A DNA stretch of 52,601 bases from a phage. This document shows positions 12,577-25,341 of this stretch, piece by piece. Both the position numbers and the translations under genes were made by a program. A model generated the notes under the pieces. The model was not told the DNA's origin and searched no databases. It was given only the letters and a program-made list of their open reading frames with translations. Every line of letters begins with the position of its first letter. Positions within the stretch are counted from its first letter, which is position 1. Location: the NCBI GenBank assembly GCA_026686805.1, contig GCA_026686805.1_3949.1. One strand, given 5' to 3'.

Positions 12577-12653
12577 CTCTGTTTAGCTCAGCTTGGTAGA
12601 GCGTTCCGTTTGGGGCGGTAAGGCCGGAGGTTCAAGTCCTCCAACAGAGACCA
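12577..12653 (+). tRNA. tRNA-Pro (anticodon TGG)
   Basis: hand-folded cloverleaf: acceptor ctctgtt/aacagag, D-arm gctcagcttggtagagc, anticodon loop ttTGGgg, T-loop ttcaagt, CCA encoded. Confidence 0.65.
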
Positions 12654-12660
12654 AATTAAT

Positions 12661-12738
12661 GTTCCAGTAGACAAAATGGTAAAGTCACCACTCTTTCAAA
12701 GTGGATATCTGAGGGTTCAAATCCCTTCTGGAACGCCA
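12661..12738 (+). tRNA. tRNA-Glu (anticodon TTC)
   Basis: acceptor gttccag/ctggaac, anticodon stem ccact/agtgg, loop ctTTCaa, T-loop ttcaaat, CCA encoded. Confidence 0.75.
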
Positions 12739-12745
12739 GTTTTGA

Positions 12746-12817
12746 CAGAAGACCAATTACAGCAAACTTAATCTACTCATCTGACACGAAATCGGACAAA
12801 GAAGATATTTGGTCTGG
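12746..12817 (+). repeat. bipartite spacer element copy a (CAGAAGACC-nnWTWCAGCAA ... GGTCTGG)
   Basis: seen directly; 5' block 12746-12765, 3' block 12811-12817; agacc/ggtct can pair. Confidence 0.5.
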
Positions 12818-12828
12818 TCATTGAGAAT

Positions 12829-12905
12829 TGCGGGTATAGAGAAAGGGCGTCTCACATGTCTCATTAGCATGGTATCGGCAGGTTCGACTCCTGCACCCGC
12901 CTCCA
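12829..12905 (+). tRNA. tRNA with CAT anticodon (Met or Ile-lysidine type)
   Basis: anticodon stem catgt/gcatg, loop ctCATta, T-arm gcagg-ttcgact-cctgc, CCA encoded; acceptor has a mismatch at one end so boundaries +/-1. Confidence 0.6.
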
Positions 12906-12911
12906 ATTTTG

Positions 12912-12971
12912 CAGAAGACCGTATTCAGCAACAAAATACTTTTTGCGGATAAAAGAAAAAACACGGTCTGG
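12912..12971 (+). repeat. bipartite spacer element copy b
   Basis: gcagaagaccgtattcagcaa ... acacggtctgg. Confidence 0.5.
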
Positions 12972-12982
12972 CAATGTATTAA

Positions 12983-13059
12983 GGTTAGGAAGCACATAAG
13001 GTATGTGCGGTCGCCTGTTAAGCGAATGGCACAGGGTTCGAATCCCTGACTAACCGCCA
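12983..13059 (+). tRNA. tRNA-Asn (anticodon GTT)
   Basis: acceptor ggttagg/actaacc, D-stem gcac/gtgc, anticodon loop ctGTTaa, T-arm caggg-ttcgaat-ccctg, CCA encoded. Confidence 0.7.
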
Positions 13060-13067
13060 AATTAAAT

Positions 13068-13155
13068 GTGTCGTTATCCCGTAGATGGTAGCGGTGGGGA
13101 CTGTAAATCCCTTGTCATTGAGACTCGGTAGGTTCGACTCCTACACGGCACACCA
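13068..13155 (+). tRNA. tRNA-Tyr (anticodon GTA), long variable arm
   Basis: acceptor gtgtcgt/acggcac, anticodon stem gggga/tccct, loop ctGTAaa, long variable arm, T-arm gtagg-ttcgact-cctac, CCA. Confidence 0.7.
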
Positions 13156-13160
13156 ATAAA

Positions 13161-13237
13161 GGCTATGTAGTTTAACTGGAGAAAATACTCCCCTGTCACG
13201 GGAGATGATGTGAGTTCAAGTCTCATCGTAGCCGCCA
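13161..13237 (+). tRNA. tRNA-Asp (anticodon GTC)
   Basis: acceptor ggctatg/cgtagcc, anticodon stem ctccc/gggag, loop ctGTCac, T-loop ttcaagt, CCA. Confidence 0.75.
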
Positions 13238-13298
13238 ATTTTGAGAGGGCTATTTAGCCCCTCCCTTAAAGAGTTCTTACGAGTATTCTTTAAAGGAG

Positions 13299-13372
13299 CA
13301 GAAGACCAAATACAGCAAGAATGTATGAAATTTCAAGCCAATTTAATTTTGAAAATTTAAAACTTGGTCTGG
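13299..13372 (+). repeat. bipartite spacer element copy c
   Basis: agcagaagaccaaatacagcaa ... aacttggtctgg. Confidence 0.5.
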
Positions 13373-13385
13373 CTCAACAAATTTA

Positions 13386-13517
13386 CAGAAGACCGTTTAC
13401 AGCAAAACTTAAACAATCTATTTCTCCGGTAAAGAAAAGGCGAAGGTTCGATTCCTTCACTCGGCAGATGTCGAGTTGGTGTAATGGTAGCACTTAAGAT
13501 GATAAACAACGGTCTGG
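13386..13517 (+). repeat. bipartite spacer element copy d, enclosing a tRNA-like relic
   Basis: acagaagaccgtttacagcaa ... aacaacggtctgg; interior holds T-arm/acceptor-like and acceptor/D-arm-like segments. Confidence 0.5.
13442..13495 (+). other. tRNA-like relic in reversed half order (T-arm + 3' acceptor strand immediately followed by complementary 5' acceptor strand + D-arm)
   Basis: gaagg-ttcgatt-ccttc + actcggc then gtcgagt + ggtgtaatggtagcac; no complete cloverleaf can be drawn. Confidence 0.35.
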
Positions 13518-13666
13518 TAATTATCTTTGTAGATAAGTTATTAAGCTTACCTGTGAGTATGCGACCACAAAGGGTGAAAGGGTAAATTCTAGATTTAAAC
13601 CCAACAAGGCACATCGCTACAGACCTTAAGCAAGTCTGGGTAGCTTATCTACAAAGGTAATTTAAT

Positions 13667-13742
13667 GGAAGTGTAGCAGAATGGTGATGCGGCAGACTTT
13701 TAATCTGACAGGCGATGGGTTCGAATCCCTCCACTTCTACCA
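13667..13742 (+). tRNA. tRNA-Lys (anticodon TTT)
   Basis: acceptor ggaagtg/cacttct, anticodon loop ctTTTaa, T-loop ttcgaat, CCA; T-stem weak in my fold. Confidence 0.6.
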
Positions 13743-13746
13743 AAAT

Positions 13747-13823
13747 GGTTCAGTCGCAGATAAGGTAATGCAAGGGTCTCATAAGCCCTATGAATGTGGG
13801 TTCAATTCCCATCTGAACCTCCA
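13747..13823 (+). tRNA. tRNA with CAT anticodon (Met, initiator or Ile-lysidine type)
   Basis: acceptor ggttcag/ctgaacc, anticodon stem agggt/gccct, loop ctCATaa, T-loop ttcaatt, CCA. Confidence 0.7.
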
Positions 13824-13831
13824 ATTTATCG

Positions 13832-14326
13832 GTGATACTTATGATTTGTGCTAACAAAGATTGCGGAAATGAAGCCGTTAAAGGTGGAAAATTTTGCTCA
13901 CGCTCTTGTTCTGCAAAAGTGAACAACAAGAAACACCCAAAGAGAAGTCAGGAAGGCTCTTGCCATTCATGCGGAAAGGTAACGCCAAAAGCAAGAAAAT
14001 ACTGTGACGAATGTATTTCAGGTGGAGTCATGAAAAAACATAAGACCCATCATGAAAAAAGCAAAGCTAAATCACTGCACGTTAAAAAGTCTCGTGATAG
14101 ACTGAAGAAGGCTTTAGTTGATTACAAGGGTGGTTGTTGTTCAATTTGTGGTTACAATAGGTGCATAAAGGCTCTAGAGTTTCACCACTTAGACCCTAAC
14201 ACAAAAGACTTCACAGTAGGTCAAAAACACTACTCACTGGCTACAATGCAGTCTGAAGTTGATAAGTGTGTCTTGCTTTGTGCAAATTGCCATAGAGAAG
14301 TACACGAAGGGGTAACAATGCTGTGA
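13832..14326 (+). CDS. HNH homing endonuclease (Cys-rich N-terminus, C-terminal HNH motif)
   Basis: C-terminal ...CSICGYNRC...LEFHHLDPNTKDF...CVLLCANCHREVHEG = HNH signature; embedded in tRNA array; stop codon overlaps start of tRNA-Ile. Confidence 0.75.
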   Translation: MILMICANKDCGNEAVKGGKFCSRSCSAKVNNKKHPKRSQEGSCHSCGKVTPKARKYCDECISGGVMKKHKTHHEKSKAKSLHVKKSRDRLKKALVDYKGGCCSICGYNRCIKALEFHHLDPNTKDFTVGQKHYSLATMQSEVDKCVLLCANCHREVHEGVTML

Positions 14327-14395
14327 AAGCACATATGGATGTGCATTCGGCTGATAACCGAAAGGTAGAAGGTTCGAATCCTTCTCACAGTACCA
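14320..14395 (+). tRNA. tRNA-Ile (anticodon GAT)
   Basis: acceptor gctgtga/tcacagt, D-stem gcac/gtgc, anticodon stem ttcgg/ccgaa, loop ctGATaa, T-arm gaagg-ttcgaat-ccttc, CCA. Confidence 0.75.
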
Positions 14396-14410
14396 ATTTC
14401 AATAAAGTTG

Positions 14411-14439
14411 TTGACATTGAGATGCGACTACTTTATAGT
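14411..14439 (+). promoter_or_regulatory. sigma70-like promoter TTGACA-17-TATAGT inside the tRNA array
   Basis: -35 ttgaca 14411-14416, 17-nt spacer, -10 tatagt 14434-14439. Confidence 0.5.
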
Positions 14440-14445
14440 AACCTT

Positions 14446-14610
14446 AGTTTTCGTTGCGTAGCGTCTATTTTGCAAATTTAAAATAAATGCAAACGACAAT
14501 GTTTTTCTGGCAGTAGCTTGATAGGCTAAACACCAGTGAGGTCTTCCAATCCCTCATCAAAGAATTTGGCGTACTAGCCCACGGTATGATTAATAAGGTG
14601 GGCATCTTTA
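14446..14610 (+). ncRNA. candidate small structured RNA downstream of promoter (no coding potential, no tRNA fold)
   Basis: hairpins tttgca/tgcaaa and gcccac(14577-14582)/gtgggc(14598-14603) followed by atcttt; purely structural inference. Confidence 0.2.
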
Positions 14611-14643
14611 AGGGCTTTCTAAGAGAGTCTTTAAAGATAATTA

Positions 14644-14725
14644 CGGGGCGTATCTCAGCGGTCTTCTAAACCGCCGTTAACCGAGTAAGTGGAGTATGCG
14701 GGTTCGAGTCCTGCCGCCTCGACCA
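14644..14725 (+). tRNA. atypical tRNA-like gene, possible tRNA-Arg (anticodon TCT); D-arm not placeable, 23-nt region between anticodon and T arms
   Basis: acceptor cggggcg/cgcctcg, perfect anticodon arm gcggt-ctTCTaa-accgc, T-arm gcggg-ttcgagt-cctgc, CCA; geometry non-canonical. Confidence 0.35.
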
Positions 14726-14868
14726 ATTTAGTTAGCAGATTACTTAGACGACCTTATCGGGTCTCCGTGTAAGGAGGTGGTCTGTATCTCATGTTTTCCA
14801 GAACATGTAAATAATCTGAGAAGGGGCTTTACAGTGTTGAGATAATACGGTAAGCTTCGAATTATAGT

Positions 14869-14951
14869 ATGGGACGATGTTAAGACTCTAAGGCATGAGC
14901 AACGGCTTCCAACACCGTTTCAAAGGGGTTCAACTCCTCCGTCCCATGCCA
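14869..14951 (+). tRNA. atypical tRNA-like gene, possible tRNA-Trp (anticodon CCA); 7 extra nt between acceptor and D-arm
   Basis: acceptor atgggac/gtcccat (7/7), anticodon arm acggc-ttCCAac-accgt, T-loop ttcaact, CCA. Confidence 0.35.
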
Positions 14952-14964
14952 AAGTCTTATTAGG

Positions 14965-15052
14965 GGTAGGTAGCGGCTAATGGTAGCCAAACTGTCTTGA
15001 AAACAGTTGCCACTGTAGAGATACGGTGAGGGTTCGACTCCTTTACTTACCG
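14965..15052 (+). tRNA. tRNA-Ser (anticodon TGA), long variable arm
   Basis: acceptor ggtaggt/acttacc, perfect anticodon stem actgt/acagt, loop ctTGAaa, 20-nt variable arm, T-arm gaggg-ttcgact-ccttt; CCA not encoded. Confidence 0.7.
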
Positions 15053-15310
15053 CCTAATAAGATTTTAAAGCCAAGCTTCATTCGGATGTTGCTTTGGTAT
15101 CCCTCGTGTATTGTCGTACACACTGATAAAACACCTAGTAGGTGTCACGGAGAAGAGATAATATCAAGCTCTCCAAAGGTTCTAGTCACCGGATTAAACA
15201 AGACTATGCAAAGACCTTTTTAGGTCTTTTTAGAGGGCTTCTAAGGTTATTACGGCTTGTTGTGGAACCTTGTTGCTTAGGTTCTTAGAAGTTCTCTAAA
15301 AAGATTTAAT

Positions 15311-15388
15311 GGGAGATTGACGGTAATTGGTAAACCTATCTCGCTTAGAACGAGATGTTTGAGGGTTCGAATCCCTTGTCTCCTACCA
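15311..15388 (+). tRNA. tRNA with TAG anticodon (Leu by anticodon), short variable loop
   Basis: acceptor gggagat/gtctcct, perfect anticodon stem tctcg/cgaga, loop ctTAGaa, T-loop ttcgaat, CCA; class I architecture unusual for Leu. Confidence 0.55.
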
Positions 15389-15395
15389 AATTAAT

Positions 15396-15471
15396 GCAGG
15401 TGTAGCAAAATGGTTATGCGGCTGACTCTTAATCAGTAAGACGATGGGTTCAATTCCCTCCACCTGTACCA
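15396..15471 (+). tRNA. tRNA-Lys (anticodon CTT)
   Basis: acceptor gcaggtg/cacctgt, anticodon stem gctga/tcagt, loop ctCTTaa, T-loop ttcaatt, CCA. Confidence 0.65.
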
Positions 15472-15476
15472 AAAAT

Positions 15477-15552
15477 GGGGTCATAGTTTATATGGTTAAA
15501 ATTCGAGTTTTGCAAACTTGGGAACTGAGTTCAATTCTCAGTGACTCCACCA
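15477..15552 (+). tRNA. tRNA-Ala (anticodon TGC)
   Basis: acceptor ggggtca/tgactcc, anticodon stem cgagt/acttg, loop ttTGCaa, T-loop ttcaatt, CCA. Confidence 0.65.
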
Positions 15553-15558
15553 ATTAGT

Positions 15559-15633
15559 GCATCCATAGTTTAAACGGGAAAATTACAGTCTTCCAAACTG
15601 AGGTTGAGGGTTCGATTCCCTCTGGATGCTCCA
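15559..15633 (+). tRNA. tRNA-Gly (anticodon TCC)
   Basis: acceptor gcatcca/tggatgc, anticodon loop ctTCCaa, T-arm gaggg-ttcgatt-ccctc, CCA. Confidence 0.7.
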
Positions 15634-15640
15634 AATTAAT

Positions 15641-15716
15641 GCTCCTATCGTATAATTGGCTATTACGGTTGCCTTGTAAGCAACTTATCAGGGTTCGAAT
15701 CCTTGTGGGAGCACCA
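15641..15716 (+). tRNA. tRNA-Thr (anticodon TGT)
   Basis: acceptor gctccta/tgggagc, perfect anticodon stem gttgc/gcaac, loop ctTGTaa, T-loop ttcgaat, CCA. Confidence 0.75.
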
Positions 15717-15718
15717 AT

Positions 15719-15811
15719 TCAGAGGTCAAGTGAAAGACCGCTGGTGTCAACTGAAGACCGTAACAAATTCCACGGAGTTGAGTTAGCGGCACAACTTCAG
15801 ACCTCTTTCAC
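15719..15811 (+). other. structured spacer element (inverted repeat agaggtc ... gacctct, internal gaagaccgtaacaaattc block)
   Basis: seen directly; related to the CAGAAGACC-containing spacer elements; function unknown. Confidence 0.3.
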
Positions 15812-15886
15812 ACTCGCTTAGTTTATATGGTAAAACATCACCCTTACAAGATGAAGAAAAAGGTTCAAGTCCTTTAGTGAGTACCA
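15812..15886 (+). tRNA. tRNA-Val (anticodon TAC)
   Basis: acceptor actcgct/agtgagt, anticodon stem tcacc/gatga (one mismatch), loop ctTACaa, T-arm aaagg-ttcaagt-ccttt, CCA. Confidence 0.65.
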
Positions 15887-15887
15887 T

Positions 15888-15965
15888 GTTCCAGTATCCC
15901 AATTGGCAGAGGATGCAAGCTCAAACCTTGTATTAGTGACGGTTCGAATCCGTCTTGGAACACCA
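15888..15965 (+). tRNA. tRNA with CAA anticodon (Leu by anticodon), short variable loop
   Basis: acceptor gttccag/ttggaac, anticodon stem gcaag/cttgt, loop ctCAAac, T-arm gacgg-ttcgaat-ccgtc, CCA. Confidence 0.55.
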
Positions 15966-15981
15966 ATTTTAGGAGAACACT

Positions 15982-16089
15982 ATGAGCAATAAGTCAATTG
16001 CAAAAAAGTTTAGAGCGTCATACCTAAACAGACGTAAAAACAAAGTTTGTGAAAAACTGTATGGTGTTCTCGTAGGTAAGCAGGATTAG
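15982..16089 (+). CDS. possible small ORF (35 aa, basic) overlapping the 5' end of tRNA-Arg
   Basis: AGGAG RBS 6 nt upstream of ATG; below the track's 60-aa cutoff; overlap with tRNA makes it doubtful. Confidence 0.2.
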   Translation: MSNKSIAKKFRASYLNRRKNKVCEKLYGVLVGKQD

Positions 16090-16155
16090 TTCAAATGGAT
16101 AGAGCAACAGTCTACGAAGCTGTTAATAGGGGTTCGAATCCCTTATCCTGCACCA
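16080..16155 (+). tRNA. tRNA-Arg (anticodon ACG)
   Basis: acceptor gcaggat/atcctgc, D-arm gttcaaatggatagagc, anticodon stem acagt/gctgt, loop ctACGaa, T-loop ttcgaat, CCA. Confidence 0.75.
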
Positions 16156-16174
16156 ATTTAAAGAGGCTATTTAG

Positions 16175-16732
16175 ATGAGATATTTGAAGTATGCTTCATG
16201 GATTTTCTTAGCTTTGTTAGAGCCATTTGCAGCAATCTTAGCAGTTATCTTAGCACCTTTTGTAGTTCCATTCTACAGTGAGAAGAAAGGACACTTACCT
16301 TTCGGGTTCAGATGGATGGAGACATATGACAACCCAATTGATGGTGATGAAGGTCACGTTAAAAGATGGGCTAATATCAGATGGATTGGTAAACTAGGTG
16401 TCTACATGCAAAGAGTCGGATGGCTCTGGAGAAACAAAGCTTATAACTTCTCTTACCATGTATTAGGAAGAGATGTAAAAGATGTTACTAAGTGGAAAGG
16501 TAATATCAACGTAAGTTCTGACCCTGAAGATAATCAGACAGGTTATCTACTAATGTGGAACAGTAATGCTTGGGGATTATTCGCTTTTATCCCATCAATT
16601 AAAATCTTTGGTAAACAATTTTACTGGAGAATTTATATTGGATGGAAACTAAAAAGTGTTGTCCCAGAAGAAAGAGCATTCTCAAGGGAAAGAGTTATGT
16701 TGGCATTCTTTATTCATCCACTGAGAAAGTAA
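16175..16732 (+). CDS. hypothetical protein with hydrophobic N-terminus (185 aa), embedded in tRNA array
   Basis: ORF from track; N-terminal hydrophobic segment WIFLALLEPFAAILAVILAPFVVPF. Confidence 0.5.
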   Translation: MRYLKYASWIFLALLEPFAAILAVILAPFVVPFYSEKKGHLPFGFRWMETYDNPIDGDEGHVKRWANIRWIGKLGVYMQRVGWLWRNKAYNFSYHVLGRDVKDVTKWKGNINVSSDPEDNQTGYLLMWNSNAWGLFAFIPSIKIFGKQFYWRIYIGWKLKSVVPEERAFSRERVMLAFFIHPLRK

Positions 16733-16740
16733 AGATTTAA

Positions 16741-16816
16741 AGGGGATTAGTTTACAAGGTTAAAACCTCGGTCTTTGAAATCGAAGAAGTTGGTTCAATT
16801 CCAACATCCCCCGCCA
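16741..16816 (+). tRNA. tRNA-Gln (anticodon TTG)
   Basis: acceptor aggggat/atccccc (1-72 mismatch), anticodon stem tcggt/atcga, loop ctTTGaa, T-arm gttgg-ttcaatt-ccaac, CCA. Confidence 0.65.
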
Positions 16817-16818
16817 AT

Positions 16819-16897
16819 GCTCCATTACTCCAATTGGCAGAGAGGCCAGACTTAAAATCTGTGTTATGTATCGGTTCGAATCCGATATGGAGTACCA
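16819..16897 (+). tRNA. tRNA with TAA anticodon (Leu by anticodon), short variable loop
   Basis: acceptor gctccat/atggagt, anticodon stem caga/tctg, loop ctTAAaa, T-arm atcgg-ttcgaat-ccgat, CCA. Confidence 0.5.
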
Positions 16898-16902
16898 AAT
16901 TT

Positions 16903-16978
16903 AGCGGCATAGCATAACTGGCAATGCAGCAGTCTCTGAAGCTGTCTTATTAAGGTTCAAATCCTTATGCCGCTGCCA
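16903..16978 (+). tRNA. tRNA-Gln (anticodon CTG)
   Basis: acceptor agcggca/tgccgct, D-stem gcat/atgc, anticodon loop ctCTGaa (stem with two G-U pairs), T-arm taagg-ttcaaat-cctta, CCA. Confidence 0.55.
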
Positions 16979-17009
16979 CTTCTAAGGATTCTTACGAGAG
17001 TCCTTAAAT

Positions 17010-17085
17010 GTGGCCTTATCATAAACGGTAATGACCCATGCTGTGAACATGGTCTATACGGGTTCAAATCCCGTAGGTCACCCCA
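17010..17085 (+). tRNA. tRNA-His (anticodon GTG)
   Basis: acceptor gtggcct/aggtcac, perfect anticodon stem ccatg/catgg, loop ctGTGaa, T-arm acggg-ttcaaat-cccgt, CCA. Confidence 0.7.
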
Positions 17086-17091
17086 ATTTAT

Positions 17092-17167
17092 AGTCCAAGT
17101 AGCTTATATGGTTAAAGCGCGTGTCTGAAAAACATGAGAAGAGTGTTCAAATCCCACTGGACTACCA
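17092..17167 (+). tRNA. tRNA-Phe (anticodon GAA)
   Basis: acceptor (t)agtcca/tggact(a), anticodon stem cgtgt/acatg, loop ctGAAaa, T-loop ttcaaat; 5' boundary +/-1. Confidence 0.6.
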
Positions 17168-17183
17168 ATTTCAAAGGTGCTTA

Positions 17184-17918
17184 ATGAAAGAGATGACAGA
17201 ACAAGGTAAGGAGATTTTCAATCTCTTAAAAACCGGTAAAGGGTTTTCTAACCCCCTTATTACTGGTGCAGCAGTTCTCGGTGGAACCGTAGCTGCCTCT
17301 ACATCACTTGTAAGCTCTATTAGCTCTGTATCAGACCCTACAGTAAAGGATAAGCTTGTTGCTGCTGGACTTACAACAGTTCTGCTTAACAGCTTTACCA
17401 CGAGTCTGACAAGCACTACATCAACTACCAAAACACTAACAGATTACGGTCAAAAATCCATTGATGAGTTTTCATCACGTATGCAGGTAGCAAAAGGTTA
17501 TTCTAATGTTATGGGTGCAGCAGGTGAACAAGTTGGCTGTACACCATTTAGTGGTATTATGGGTGTTGCTACAGAGTATGGTCAAAAAGCTATTGATACG
17601 ATTAACAGTGCACTAGATAGTGTTAATGGTGTGTTAAGTGACTTACAAGATGCTATTGACAAAGGTCTTGATACTATTTCTGATTTAGCTGAGCAAGCTG
17701 TTAGTAAGATTAATGAAGGTATTTCAAAAATTACAGCTTATGCAGATGAAGTTGTGCAGATGATTGAAGAAGAAGCTGCTCTTATTGCAGAGTACCTTAA
17801 AACGAATATCAATGGGTTCTTAGCAGGTATCTTACCAGACTGGTTTGATGATGCTTGTAAAACTGGTGTAATTGACACTATTGCAACACCAGAAATGAAG
17901 AACGCATTACAGAAATAA
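17184..17918 (+). CDS. hypothetical Ser/Thr-rich protein (244 aa), embedded in tRNA array
   Basis: track ORF 17121..17918 overlaps tRNA-Phe; ATG at 17184 has RBS aaaggtg and clears the tRNA. Confidence 0.5.
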   Translation: MKEMTEQGKEIFNLLKTGKGFSNPLITGAAVLGGTVAASTSLVSSISSVSDPTVKDKLVAAGLTTVLLNSFTTSLTSTTSTTKTLTDYGQKSIDEFSSRMQVAKGYSNVMGAAGEQVGCTPFSGIMGVATEYGQKAIDTINSALDSVNGVLSDLQDAIDKGLDTISDLAEQAVSKINEGISKITAYADEVVQMIEEEAALIAEYLKTNINGFLAGILPDWFDDACKTGVIDTIATPEMKNALQK

Positions 17919-17920
17919 AT

Positions 17921-18013
17921 GGAAGATTAACCCTAAAAGGTAAGGGAGCAGTTTGCTAAACTGCCAGTAGCTGAGAAATCGGTGTACCAGTTCAAGTCTG
18001 GTATCTTCCTCCA
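17921..18013 (+). tRNA. tRNA-Ser (anticodon GCT), long variable arm
   Basis: acceptor ggaagat/atcttcc, perfect anticodon stem gcagt/actgc, loop ttGCTaa, ~21-nt variable arm, T-arm accag-ttcaagt-ctggt, CCA. Confidence 0.75.
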
Positions 18014-18017
18014 ATTT

Positions 18018-18093
18018 GAATCCGTGACAGAAATGGCTATGTGCCTGTCTGCAAAACAGGTTTATAAGGGTTCGAGTCCCTTCGGATTCTCCA
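18018..18093 (+). tRNA. tRNA-Cys (anticodon GCA)
   Basis: acceptor gaatccg/cggattc, perfect anticodon stem cctgt/acagg, loop ctGCAaa, T-arm aaggg-ttcgagt-ccctt, CCA. Confidence 0.75.
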
Positions 18094-24234: not shown

Positions 24235-25341
24235 ATGTTGACTAATTCTGAAAAAAGCAGATTTTTCCTTGCTGACCTGACTGGTGAAGTCCAGTCTATC
24301 CCAAATACTTATGGGTATATTTCCAACTTAGGTCTGTTCCGTTCAGCACCAATCACCCAAACTACTTTCCTTATGGACTTGACTGATTGGGATGTTAGCT
24401 TGCTTGATGCGGTAGACCGTGATAGCCGTAAAGCAGAGACTAGCGCACCTGAGCGTGTTCGTCAAATCAGCTTCCCAATGATGTACTTCAAAGAAGTTGA
24501 AAGCATTACTCCTGATGAAATTCAGGGTGTACGTCAGCCAGGCACTGCAAACGAACTGACTACTGAAGCTGTAGTACGTGCTAAGAAGCTGATGAAGATT
24601 CGTACCAAGTTCGATATTACTCGTGAGTTCCTGTTTATGCAAGCTCTGAAGGGTAAAGTTGTTGATGCTCGTGGTACTCTGTATGCTGACCTGTACAAGC
24701 AGTTCGACGTTGAGAAGAAGACTGTTTACTTCGACCTTGACAACCCTAATGCTGACATCGACGCTTCTATTGAAGAACTGCGTATGCACATGGAAGACGA
24801 AGCTAAGACTGGCACTGTAATCAACGGTGAAGAAATTCACGTAGTTGTTGACCGCTTATTCTTCAGCAAACTGGTTAAGCATCCTAAGATTCGTGACGCT
24901 TATCTTGCACAACAGACTCCACTGGCTTGGCAACAGATTACTGGTTCTCTGAGAACTGGTGGCACTGACGGCGTTCAGGCTCACATGAACACTTTCTACT
25001 ACGGTGGTGTTAAGTTTGTCCAGTACAACGGTAAGTTCAAAGACAAGCGTGGTAAGGTTCACACTCTGGTGAGCATTGATAGCGTAGCGGCAACTGTTGG
25101 TGTCGGTCATGCTTTCCCTAACGTTTCTATGCTGGGCGAAGCAAACAACATCTTCGAAGTGGCATATGGTCCATGTCCTAAGATGGGTTATGCCAATACA
25201 CTTGGTCAGGAACTGTACGTATTCGAATACGAAAAAGACCGTGACGAAGGTATTGACTTTGAAGCTCACTCTTACATGCTGCCATACTGCACACGTCCTC
25301 AGTTGTTGGTAGACGTTCGTTCTGACGCTAAACCAGACTAA
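24235..25341 (+). CDS. major capsid protein (putative)
   Basis: 368-aa ORF following protease/scaffold gene with strong RBS region; assignment by synteny. Confidence 0.55.
   Translation: MLTNSEKSRFFLADLTGEVQSIPNTYGYISNLGLFRSAPITQTTFLMDLTDWDVSLLDAVDRDSRKAETSAPERVRQISFPMMYFKEVESITPDEIQGVRQPGTANELTTEAVVRAKKLMKIRTKFDITREFLFMQALKGKVVDARGTLYADLYKQFDVEKKTVYFDLDNPNADIDASIEELRMHMEDEAKTGTVINGEEIHVVVDRLFFSKLVKHPKIRDAYLAQQTPLAWQQITGSLRTGGTDGVQAHMNTFYYGGVKFVQYNGKFKDKRGKVHTLVSIDSVAATVGVGHAFPNVSMLGEANNIFEVAYGPCPKMGYANTLGQELYVFEYEKDRDEGIDFEAHSYMLPYCTRPQLLVDVRSDAKPD

Follow-up and report, generated by a model that had tools for sequence, protein, structure and literature searches.

The element at positions 14869–14951 (plus strand, 83 nucleotides (nt)) of the phage DNA analysed here (GenBank assembly GCA_026686805.1, contig GCA_026686805.1_3949.1; 52,601 nt in all, hereafter the window) is probably a working transfer RNA (tRNA) for tryptophan, tRNA-Trp(CCA), of Felix O1-type phages, built to a non-canonical architecture. 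This assignment is favoured because its four helices covary, the anticodon CCA, the discriminator G73 and the CCA end are invariant, the tryptophan identity set is present, a short deletion makes it recognisable to ARAGORN, and its distribution complements that of canonical tRNA-Trp. The same lines of evidence uphold the first-pass annotation, made from the letters of the window, which had seen here a tRNA-Trp(CCA) of non-canonical form, with extra nucleotides separating the acceptor stem from the D-arm. The window belongs to a Felixounavirus: over the 101 bases surrounding the element, it is 100% identical to Salmonella phage Felix O1, and 1,001 bases match many Felix O1-like phages at 98–99%.

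In order, the element reads AUGGGACG-AUGUUAAGA-CUC-UAAGGCAU-GAG-C-AACGG-CUUCCAACA-CCGUU-UCAAA-GGGG-UUCAACU-CCUC-CGUCCCAU-G-CCA, all on the plus strand. The 5′ strand of the acceptor stem, AUGGGACG (8 nt, 14869–14876), pairs with its complement, CGUCCCAU (14940–14947), and the minimum-free-energy (MFE) fold contains the same eight base pairs (bp). The 5′ strand is followed by a single-stranded connector of 9 nt, AUGUUAAGA (14877–14885), where canonical tRNAs have 2 nt, and by the D-arm (14886–14899), whose stem CUC/GAG (14886–14888 with 14897–14899) closes the loop UAAGGCAU with G18-G19. A lone unpaired and invariant C (14900) separates the D-stem from the anticodon arm (14901–14919), which comprises the stem AACGG/CCGUU, a C·A layer and the loop UUCCAAC, with the anticodon CCA at 14909–14911. 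Thereafter come the variable loop UCAAA (14920–14924), the T-arm (14925–14939; 4-bp stem GGGG/CCUC and loop UUCAACU, with the T54-Psi55-C56-R57-A58 pattern), the 3′ acceptor strand and, finally, the discriminator G73 with a genome-encoded CCA (14948–14951). The first-pass annotation had recognised a tRNA-like element in this place from a perfect 7-bp acceptor helix atgggac/gtcccat, a plausible D-arm, an anticodon arm and a T-arm. All of these stand: the helix is followed by g-cca, the D region contains GG, the anticodon arm with the loop uuCCAac occupies 14901–14919, and the T-loop is uucaacu. Two helices were drawn differently: the 5-bp T-stem that it implied would need an A·C mismatch, the acceptor helix extending instead to 8 bp through G8:C and leaving a T-stem of 4 bp, and the proposed anticodon stem acggc/accgt ends in C·A, the Watson–Crick stem being aacgg/ccguu. 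The seven extra nucleotides that it counted are accurate to within one (six to eight, according to the D-stem chosen; for ARAGORN, 6 nt have to be deleted), whereas the exact insert tgttaag has to be replaced by the 9-nt connector auguuaaga.

A BLAST search found the element in 236 phage records at 76–100% identity, from Felixounavirus, Mooglevirus, Suspvirus and a Pectobacterium/Yersinia group, and querying with the most divergent copy gave an identical set of 236. Pattern scans of IMG/VR yielded chance matches for the most part (in coding sequence, the 14-mer GGGACGATGTTAAG also reads WDDVK); once filtered, these scans added a few near-identical Ounavirinae variants and none outside the subfamily. 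Fifteen distinct variants from GenBank and IMG/VR loci, representing four Ounavirinae lineages, were aligned with MAFFT, and the results that follow refer to them. The connector is ungapped in this alignment, and the length of the D-loop differs by 2 nt. The 8/3/5/4-bp cloverleaf is paired in 99.3% of 300 cells, and 8 of its 20 pairs are changed on both sides (35 cells). The covariation score was reached by none of 500 shuffles, and double changes fell to zero in all six controls in which the 3′ partners were slid by one to three columns. Every helix contributes double-changed pairs: two in the acceptor stem, one in the D-stem, four in the anticodon stem and one in the T-stem. Acceptor pair 1 is A:U in nine variants, G·U in four and G:C in two, and acceptor pair 2 is U:A in 13 and C:G in two. 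The middle pair of the D-stem is U:A in eight variants and A:U in seven, and the first is C:G or U·G, with all cells paired. Four of the five anticodon-stem pairs covary (AACGG/CCGUU, GACGG/CCGUU, GUAAG/CUUAC and GUAGG/CCUAC), and the T-stem begins with G:C in 13 variants and with U:A in two. As the D-stem and anticodon-stem states are seen in four combinations, the changes do not go back to one inherited event and indicate repeated compensation or recombination.

Variable columns number 20 of 41 in the stems, 1 of 9 in the connector, 0 of 5 in the variable loop (UCAAA in all 15 variants) and 0 of 4 in G73-CCA. The one variable connector column reflects a single U-to-C in PC79-13, AUGUUAAGA being otherwise identical in all lineages. 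The motifs of elongator tRNAs are kept throughout: an invariant GG in the D-loop, the T-loop UUC(A/G)A, the anticodon loop Y-U-CCA-A-M, in which U33, CCA and A37 are unchanged, and the encoded CCA.

The acceptor branch is best read as 8 + 4 = 12 bp. With a 7/5 split, the fifth T-stem pair would be A·C, which is unpaired in 15/15 variants; the G8:C acceptor pair, which uses the same C, is formed in 15/15, and the MFE fold makes the same choice, for which reasons the 8/4 split is preferred. The unpaired bases after the acceptor stem number 9 with this 8-bp stem, or 10 with a 7-bp stem. Further along, the D-stem of the Pectobacterium/Yersinia copies has gained a fourth pair, A:U, and the D-loop measures 8–10 nt across the variants. 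A rival D hairpin, AUGUU/GGCAU, which uses the connector and would bury G18-G19, was discarded: none of its pairs is changed on both sides, PC79-13 breaks it, and on steric grounds it excludes the CUC/GAG stem, which covaries. In Felix O1, the connector (UUAAGAC) can also pair with the 3′ trailer (GUCUUA), which was taken as coincidence, the trailer being different in ESh19, CHB7 and the Pectobacterium phages. The anticodon helix consists of five Watson–Crick pairs and the C·A layer (C·C in two variants), which is never a standard pair and closes a 7-nt loop. In ordinary tRNAs, nucleotides 8, 9 and 44–48 form the core; here, it is probably rebuilt from the connector and the UCAAA loop, which is equally invariant.

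In bacteria, tryptophan identity resides in G73, in the anticodon C34-C35-A36 and in the first acceptor pair; A1-U72 and G5-C68 count as minor elements (Giegé and Eriani 2023, PMC9976931). Here, G73, the anticodon CCA and G5:C68 are each present in 15/15 variants, and A1:U72 in the window copy and eight others. ARAGORN predicted 25 tRNAs for 19 amino acids in the window, all within the tRNA cluster, leaving tryptophan alone uncovered, and Rfam added only an odd element at 14644–14722, so that the candidate remains, as had been stated, the only one for tryptophan. Its codon, UGG, accounts for 1.23% of the codons in the long open reading frames (ORFs) of the window. The Felix O1 window, the Pectobacterium phage Arno162 and the Mooglevirus Sf14 have tRNAs for exactly the other 19 amino acids plus the element (PMC12482277), and no canonical tRNA-Trp was found in these three. 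Erwinia phage phiEa21-4 (Kolesnikvirus, same subfamily; NC_011811) carries an ordinary 76-nt tRNA-Trp(CCA) at 24577–24652, between tRNA-Gly and tRNA-Thr, and the connector motif was not found in this phage; the corresponding two genes of the window are neighbours, with 7 nt between them. The phiEa21-4 tRNA-Trp and the Moogle/VpaE1 copies of the element share a 15-nt anticodon stem-loop core, CGGCCUCCAAAACCG, including the C·A layer, and have A1:U72 and G73 in common as well, which points to common ancestry of the element with the canonical gene.

Phage phiEa21-4 also contains an unannotated relative of the element (NC_011811, 23959–24044), located after tRNA-Arg(UCU), which scores 20.6 bits with a covariance model built from the family. 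It retains an acceptor helix, a T-arm of 4 bp, the GCCA end and a connector, UGUGAAG, resembling AUGUUAAGA; a CCA anticodon loop is missing, and its fold is not stable (z = 0.09). Between phiEa21-4 and M7, the relative differs by eight substitutions in 86 nt, including uncompensated acceptor changes, compared with one in the neighbouring RNA of ~200 nt. As judged by these features, it is a decaying relic of the scaffold. The members of the family score 90–110 bits with the same model, and the other matches are all genuine cluster tRNAs, aligned end to end, with the canonical tRNA-Trp of phiEa21-4 (35.1 bits) among the top two non-member matches. The scaffold thus decays where a canonical tRNA-Trp is present and is kept by compensatory evolution where there is none, as a translational role predicts, and we take this complementary distribution to be the strongest argument that the element would be functional.

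The element is poorly served by the standard tools. ARAGORN made no call on the intact element or on any of the 15 intact variants. Rfam gave no tRNA-clan match to it at the gathering threshold, and a permissive Rfam search of 14400–15320 did not find it; in Moogle and Sf15, the element reaches ~22 bits with the tRNA-Sec model. Deletion of 6 nt anywhere in tRNA positions 9–19 made ARAGORN report tRNA-Trp(cca) for the window copy and for 13 of the 15 variants, the exceptions being REP8, with a G·A acceptor mismatch, and Arno162, with a bulge and a U·G pair. The D-stem that ARAGORN draws in these deletion variants (gact/agca) was rejected, as it disagrees with the covarying pairs, and so were the calls obtained on the intact element at relaxed thresholds, which were spurious (e.g. 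a tRNA-Pyl(cta) offset by 14 nt). The first-pass annotation had suggested ARAGORN as a check, in case software preferred a different canonical fold; none assigned any fold. No tRNA is annotated at this site in the GenBank records inspected, for which the BLAST tables give "none" or a spurious "hypothetical protein", and the Felix O1 genome paper, with its list of 22 tRNAs, makes no mention of tryptophan (PMC3185647). The element falls below the model threshold, does not combine a 7-bp acceptor stem with a 5-bp T-stem and does not have a 2-nt spacer before the D-stem; since these three defining features were tested and found absent, it lies outside the canonical tRNA family as software defines it.

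Several observations weigh against a working tRNA-Trp. No standard model, in ARAGORN or Rfam, recognises the element, and when 14855–14960 was searched alone, the best tRNA-clan match was tRNA-Sec, with 16.9 bits compared with a gathering threshold of 47, in an alignment that skips the connector. Taken by itself, the folding energy is not significant: an MFE of −24.1 kcal/mol corresponds to z = −1.56, and 15 of 200 shuffled sequences fold equally well. The sample is one subfamily with 15 variants, in which many changes are inherited and not independent. Individual lineages depart from the fold, with a G·A mismatch in the acceptor stem of REP8, U·U in the T-stem of L226 and, in the Pectobacterium/Yersinia copies, one extra bulged base in the 3′ acceptor strand and G1:C72 in place of A1:U72. 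G8:C and its A·C alternative are both invariant, so the 8/4 split rests on pairing potential and not on covariation. An acidobacterial 8/4 "E-loop" tRNA, tRNA1, was not charged by the glycyl- or threonyl-tRNA synthetase (GlyRS, ThrRS) of E. coli (PMC5389517). Lastly, within the Felix/Moogle/Susp group, the flanks are 87% conserved and the gene 90%; shallow conservation is therefore uninformative, and the argument needs a deeper comparison.

That comparison bears on whether the element could be a dead tRNA-Trp gene, disabled by its insertion and preserved by close phage kinship only, as the conserved flanking spacers, the failure of all detectors, the mismatches or bulge of some lineages and the existence of a decaying relative in Kolesnikvirus would suggest. 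Felix O1 and the Pectobacterium/Yersinia phages are 75–76% identical over the gene, and their upstream 120 nt show 46.9% identity, compared with 50.3 ± 2.3% for shuffled sequence. A dead gene is hard to reconcile with such an island of 75% identity amid flanks at random level, with eight helix positions changed on both sides while pairing was kept (zero in the slid controls), or with an invariant anticodon, discriminator and CCA end. The decaying Kolesnikvirus copy, moreover, looks different, without a CCA loop or a stable fold and with uncompensated acceptor changes. We consider this explanation hardly credible. On the comparative evidence, which we regard as decisive where folding energy is not, the element appears to be real and selectively maintained.

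As a working tRNA-Trp, the element would stack its 8-bp acceptor stem on the 4-bp T-stem, so that the usual 12-bp length of the branch would be retained. The 9-nt connector, in place of nucleotides 8–9, would lead into a short D-arm of three Watson–Crick pairs, in which G18-G19 would stay available to contact the UUCRA T-loop at the elbow; the connector itself would presumably be looped out, or packed into a remodelled core beside the invariant variable loop. The gene would be co-transcribed with neighbouring tRNAs of the cluster, RNase P would make the 5′ end, and the 3′ end would be trimmed to the encoded CCA. Host tryptophanyl-tRNA synthetase (TrpRS) may then charge the tRNA through G73, the CCA anticodon, A1:U72 and G5:C68, and EF-Tu would deliver it to read UGG, whereby the phage tRNA set would be complete for 20 amino acids.

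The strict conservation of the connector, equal to that of the anticodon and more than a tolerated insertion requires, may also be read as the mark of a structured tRNA-like RNA with a non-translational job in place of decoding. It could serve as a decoy or sponge, whether for TrpRS or for a host defence nuclease directed at tRNAs, as a processing signal in the polycistronic transcript, or as a partner of the tag-like RNA nearby. The element does neighbour two other unusual RNAs, and besides the acidobacterial 8/4 extra-loop tRNA that remained uncharged in vitro, some irregular tRNAs are charged and yet not used in translation (PMC5389517). A decoy, however, would need only some of the features that are strictly kept here, namely the tryptophan identity set, U33, A37, the elbow motifs and the CCA end. 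In the carriers of the element, tRNA-Trp is also exactly what the rest of the tRNA set lacks, and the scaffold decays where the canonical tRNA-Trp is present. A purely non-translational role accordingly strikes us as unlikely. We are just as doubtful of a more ambitious version of the working tRNA-Trp, in which the 9-nt connector would be an adaptive remodelling of the hinge and would establish an "extra-loop 8/4" class of working tRNAs in an E. coli/Salmonella phage that can be cultivated. On that account, the phage tRNA-Trp would gain altered decoding (Hirsh-like reading of UGA), escape from tRNA-directed defence or recognition by a phage factor, and it may act jointly with the neighbouring alanine-type tRNA-like gene and the tmRNA-tag-like RNA (tmRNA, transfer-messenger RNA).

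The narrower proposal that the tRNA-Trp works, with its hinge (connector, 3-bp D-stem and C·A layer) adapted for near-cognate reading of UGA, is very unlikely. It draws on tRNA-Trp(CCA) mutants, in which A9C, G24A and the loss of an anticodon-stem pair raise UGA read-through, and on the hinge residues defined there, 9–12, 23–26 and 44–45 (PMC13092985), which are the region remodelled in the element. The stop codons of the window (TAA 44, TGA 8, TAG 4) show, however, no avoidance of TGA beyond what its AT-richness leads one to expect, and six of the eight ORFs that end in TGA reach another stop within 0–13 codons. Known UGA readers are unpinned at the top of the anticodon stem, a position that pairs and covaries in the element, and the C·A layer is not specific to its scaffold, since the canonical tRNA-Trp of phiEa21-4 has one too.

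Set beside the canonical tRNA-Trp(CCA) of phiEa21-4 and E. coli trpT, the working tRNA-Trp proposed here has the same loop YU-CCA-AA, G73, A1:U72 and G5:C68, and lies in a phage-type tRNA cluster (the T-loop of the phiEa21-4 gene is UUCGAAU). It differs in the 9-nt connector (2 nt in the canonical form), in the 8/4 instead of 7/5 split and in the 3-bp D-stem, and, unlike the phiEa21-4 gene, it sits after the Arg-UCU slot and not between Gly and Thr. Overall identity to canonical tRNA-Trp is 60–65%, and the element alone escapes ARAGORN and Rfam. The 12-bp-branch (8/4) tRNAs described by Mukai et al. in 2017 (NAR 45:2776; PMC5389517), which include tRNA-Ser and tRNA-His from bacteria as well as from phage tRNA clusters, share with it the 8 + 4 branch and the cluster setting, but they are Ser, His or unassigned, not Trp. 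Allo-tRNAs, in turn, have a long variable arm and a Sec-like long D-stem with a tetraloop, unlike the 5-nt variable loop and 3-bp D-stem of the element. The E-loop tRNA is the only previously tested tRNA with an extra loop at the acceptor/D-stem position (PMC5389517). Its tRNA1 is described as carrying an extra feature between the acceptor stem and the D-stem, the position of the 9-nt connector here, although the E-loop may be structured differently; in contrast to the E-loop tRNA, which comes from soil metatranscriptomes and has no known host, the element occurs in cultivable E. coli/Salmonella phages and has an E. coli-type tryptophan identity set. With tRNA-Sec (RF01852), its best-scoring Rfam model, it shares the long acceptor stem; it is nevertheless not a tRNA-Sec, as it does not have the UCA anticodon, the long variable arm or the 6-bp D-stem, and its branch has 12 bp as opposed to 13 bp. 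The hinge-altered tRNA-Trp variants (Hirsh G24A, A9C and a 4-bp anticodon stem; PMC13092985) concern the same tRNA species and the same hinge, but they are point changes in a cloverleaf that is canonical in other respects, with shown UGA read-through, whereas the change in the element is a 7-nt expansion.

Felix O1, a reference Salmonella phage for decades, and its ~236 sequenced relatives are annotated with tRNAs for 19 amino acids, a count that was also used in a 2025 analysis of tRNA function in Sf14. If the element is functional, the set would be complete for all 20, which would alter analyses of codon usage and of why phages carry tRNAs. The case also exposes a systematic blind spot of tRNA finders, insertions at positions 8–9. 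As a product of natural selection, such a tRNA would combine an 8/4 branch with a 9-nt connector, and E. coli TrpRS is the synthetase predicted to charge it. A standard host could serve to probe its charging, its binding to EF-Tu, its fit in the ribosome and the structural limits of the tRNA core, unlike with the "E-loop" tRNAs of soil metatranscriptomes.

The element lies inside a dense plus-strand tRNA cluster (12577–18093), in which 25 of the 26 other tRNA genes have an encoded CCA end and an A/T-rich spacer, as does the element itself. A sigma-70-like site with 11/12 matches at 14411–14439 is the likelier start of the unit that contains the element; a promoter-like site at 14837–14865 (9/12 matches) was rejected as its promoter because transcription would begin within the tRNA. 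The sole cluster tRNA without an encoded CCA is the following tRNA-Ser(UGA) (14965–15054, plus strand), which scores higher with the Rfam tRNA-Sec model (39 bits) than with the tRNA model (33.2 bits). An 8-bp acceptor stem (GGUAGGUA/UACUUACC) combined with a 4-bp T-stem is one way of drawing it, as in the phage (8/4) tRNA-Ser that Mukai et al. described, and this drawing stands level with 7/5, as the relevant positions are invariant among relatives.

Two odd RNAs precede the element. The first, just downstream of the promoter-like site at 14411–14439, is a conserved structured RNA (14444–14643, plus strand) with a tmRNA-like tag frame at 14489–14524, GCA AAC GAC AAT GTT TTT CTG GCA GTA GCT TGA TAG, which reads ANDNVFLAVA followed by two stops; an in-frame ATG is missing, and a TAA precedes the frame by three codons. 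Felixouna-, Moogle- and Suspvirus all keep the frame, differing only by one synonymous and one stop-to-stop change; the Kolesnikvirus version is ANDAQFLAVA, again before two stops, with four synonymous third-position changes, one stop-to-stop change and two replaced codons. RNAalifold predicted 48 pairs, eight of them with compensatory changes, in a structure in which a long-range helix encloses the tag and the stops lie in a hairpin. The 3′ end of this RNA is always 0–1 nt before the 5′ end of a tRNA. A tRNA-like domain was looked for in it and not found, and the Rfam tmRNA models gave 15–30 bits, below gathering. A "permuted tmRNA" reported by ARAGORN was rejected, since it appeared only under -ps80 and borrowed its tRNA domains from tRNA-Ile and the odd tRNA. 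No tmRNAs were reported in a Felixounavirus genome announcement. This tag-like RNA may deserve more attention than the tRNA-Trp element.

The second is a tRNA-like gene at 14644–14725 (plus strand), missed by ARAGORN, which scores 31.7 bits with the Rfam tRNA model and is listed as tRNA-OTHER in some records. Its sequence, CGGGGCG-UAUCUCA-GCGGU-CUUCUAA-ACCGC-[23 nt]-GCGGG-UUCGAGU-CCUGC-CGCCUCG-A-CCA, lacks a D-arm, shows a UCU anticodon loop and carries a variable insert of 23 nt, and it combines G3:U70 with A73, the alanine identity signature. The anticodon stem is kept in REP8 by a compensatory change (GCGGU/ACCGC to GCUGU/ACAGC), and the slot is occupied by a canonical tRNA-Arg(UCU) in Moogle-, Susp- and Pectobacterium phages. 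The gene could be an alanine-charged UCU tRNA, or a tmRNA-like acceptor domain beside the tag-like RNA.

Elsewhere in the cluster, an ORF of 161 amino acids for an HNH-type homing endonuclease (13841–14326, plus strand) has a TGA stop that overlaps the start of tRNA-Ile (14320), and it is missing in relatives in which tRNA-Met adjoins tRNA-Ile. Apparent permuted tRNA pieces, called by no tool, occur at ~13440–13500 (plus strand), where a T-arm and 3′ acceptor strand (GGCGAAGGTTCGATTCCTTCACTCGGCA) come first and the matching 5′ acceptor strand and D-arm (GTCGAGTTGGTGTAATGGTAGCAC) follow 3 nt later. The spacer motif cagaagaccNNNtacagcaa is repeated between tRNA genes at 12745, 12912, 13299, 13386 and ~15750 (plus strand), with ggtctgg some tens of bases on, and may represent a small RNA or a repeated element that forms hairpins. 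Immediately before tRNA-Leu(UAG), a near-perfect hairpin of ~100 nt (15216–15315, plus strand) is annotated as a small hypothetical protein in some records and gave a spurious Rfam match to the plant microRNA precursor MIR473 (32.8 bits).

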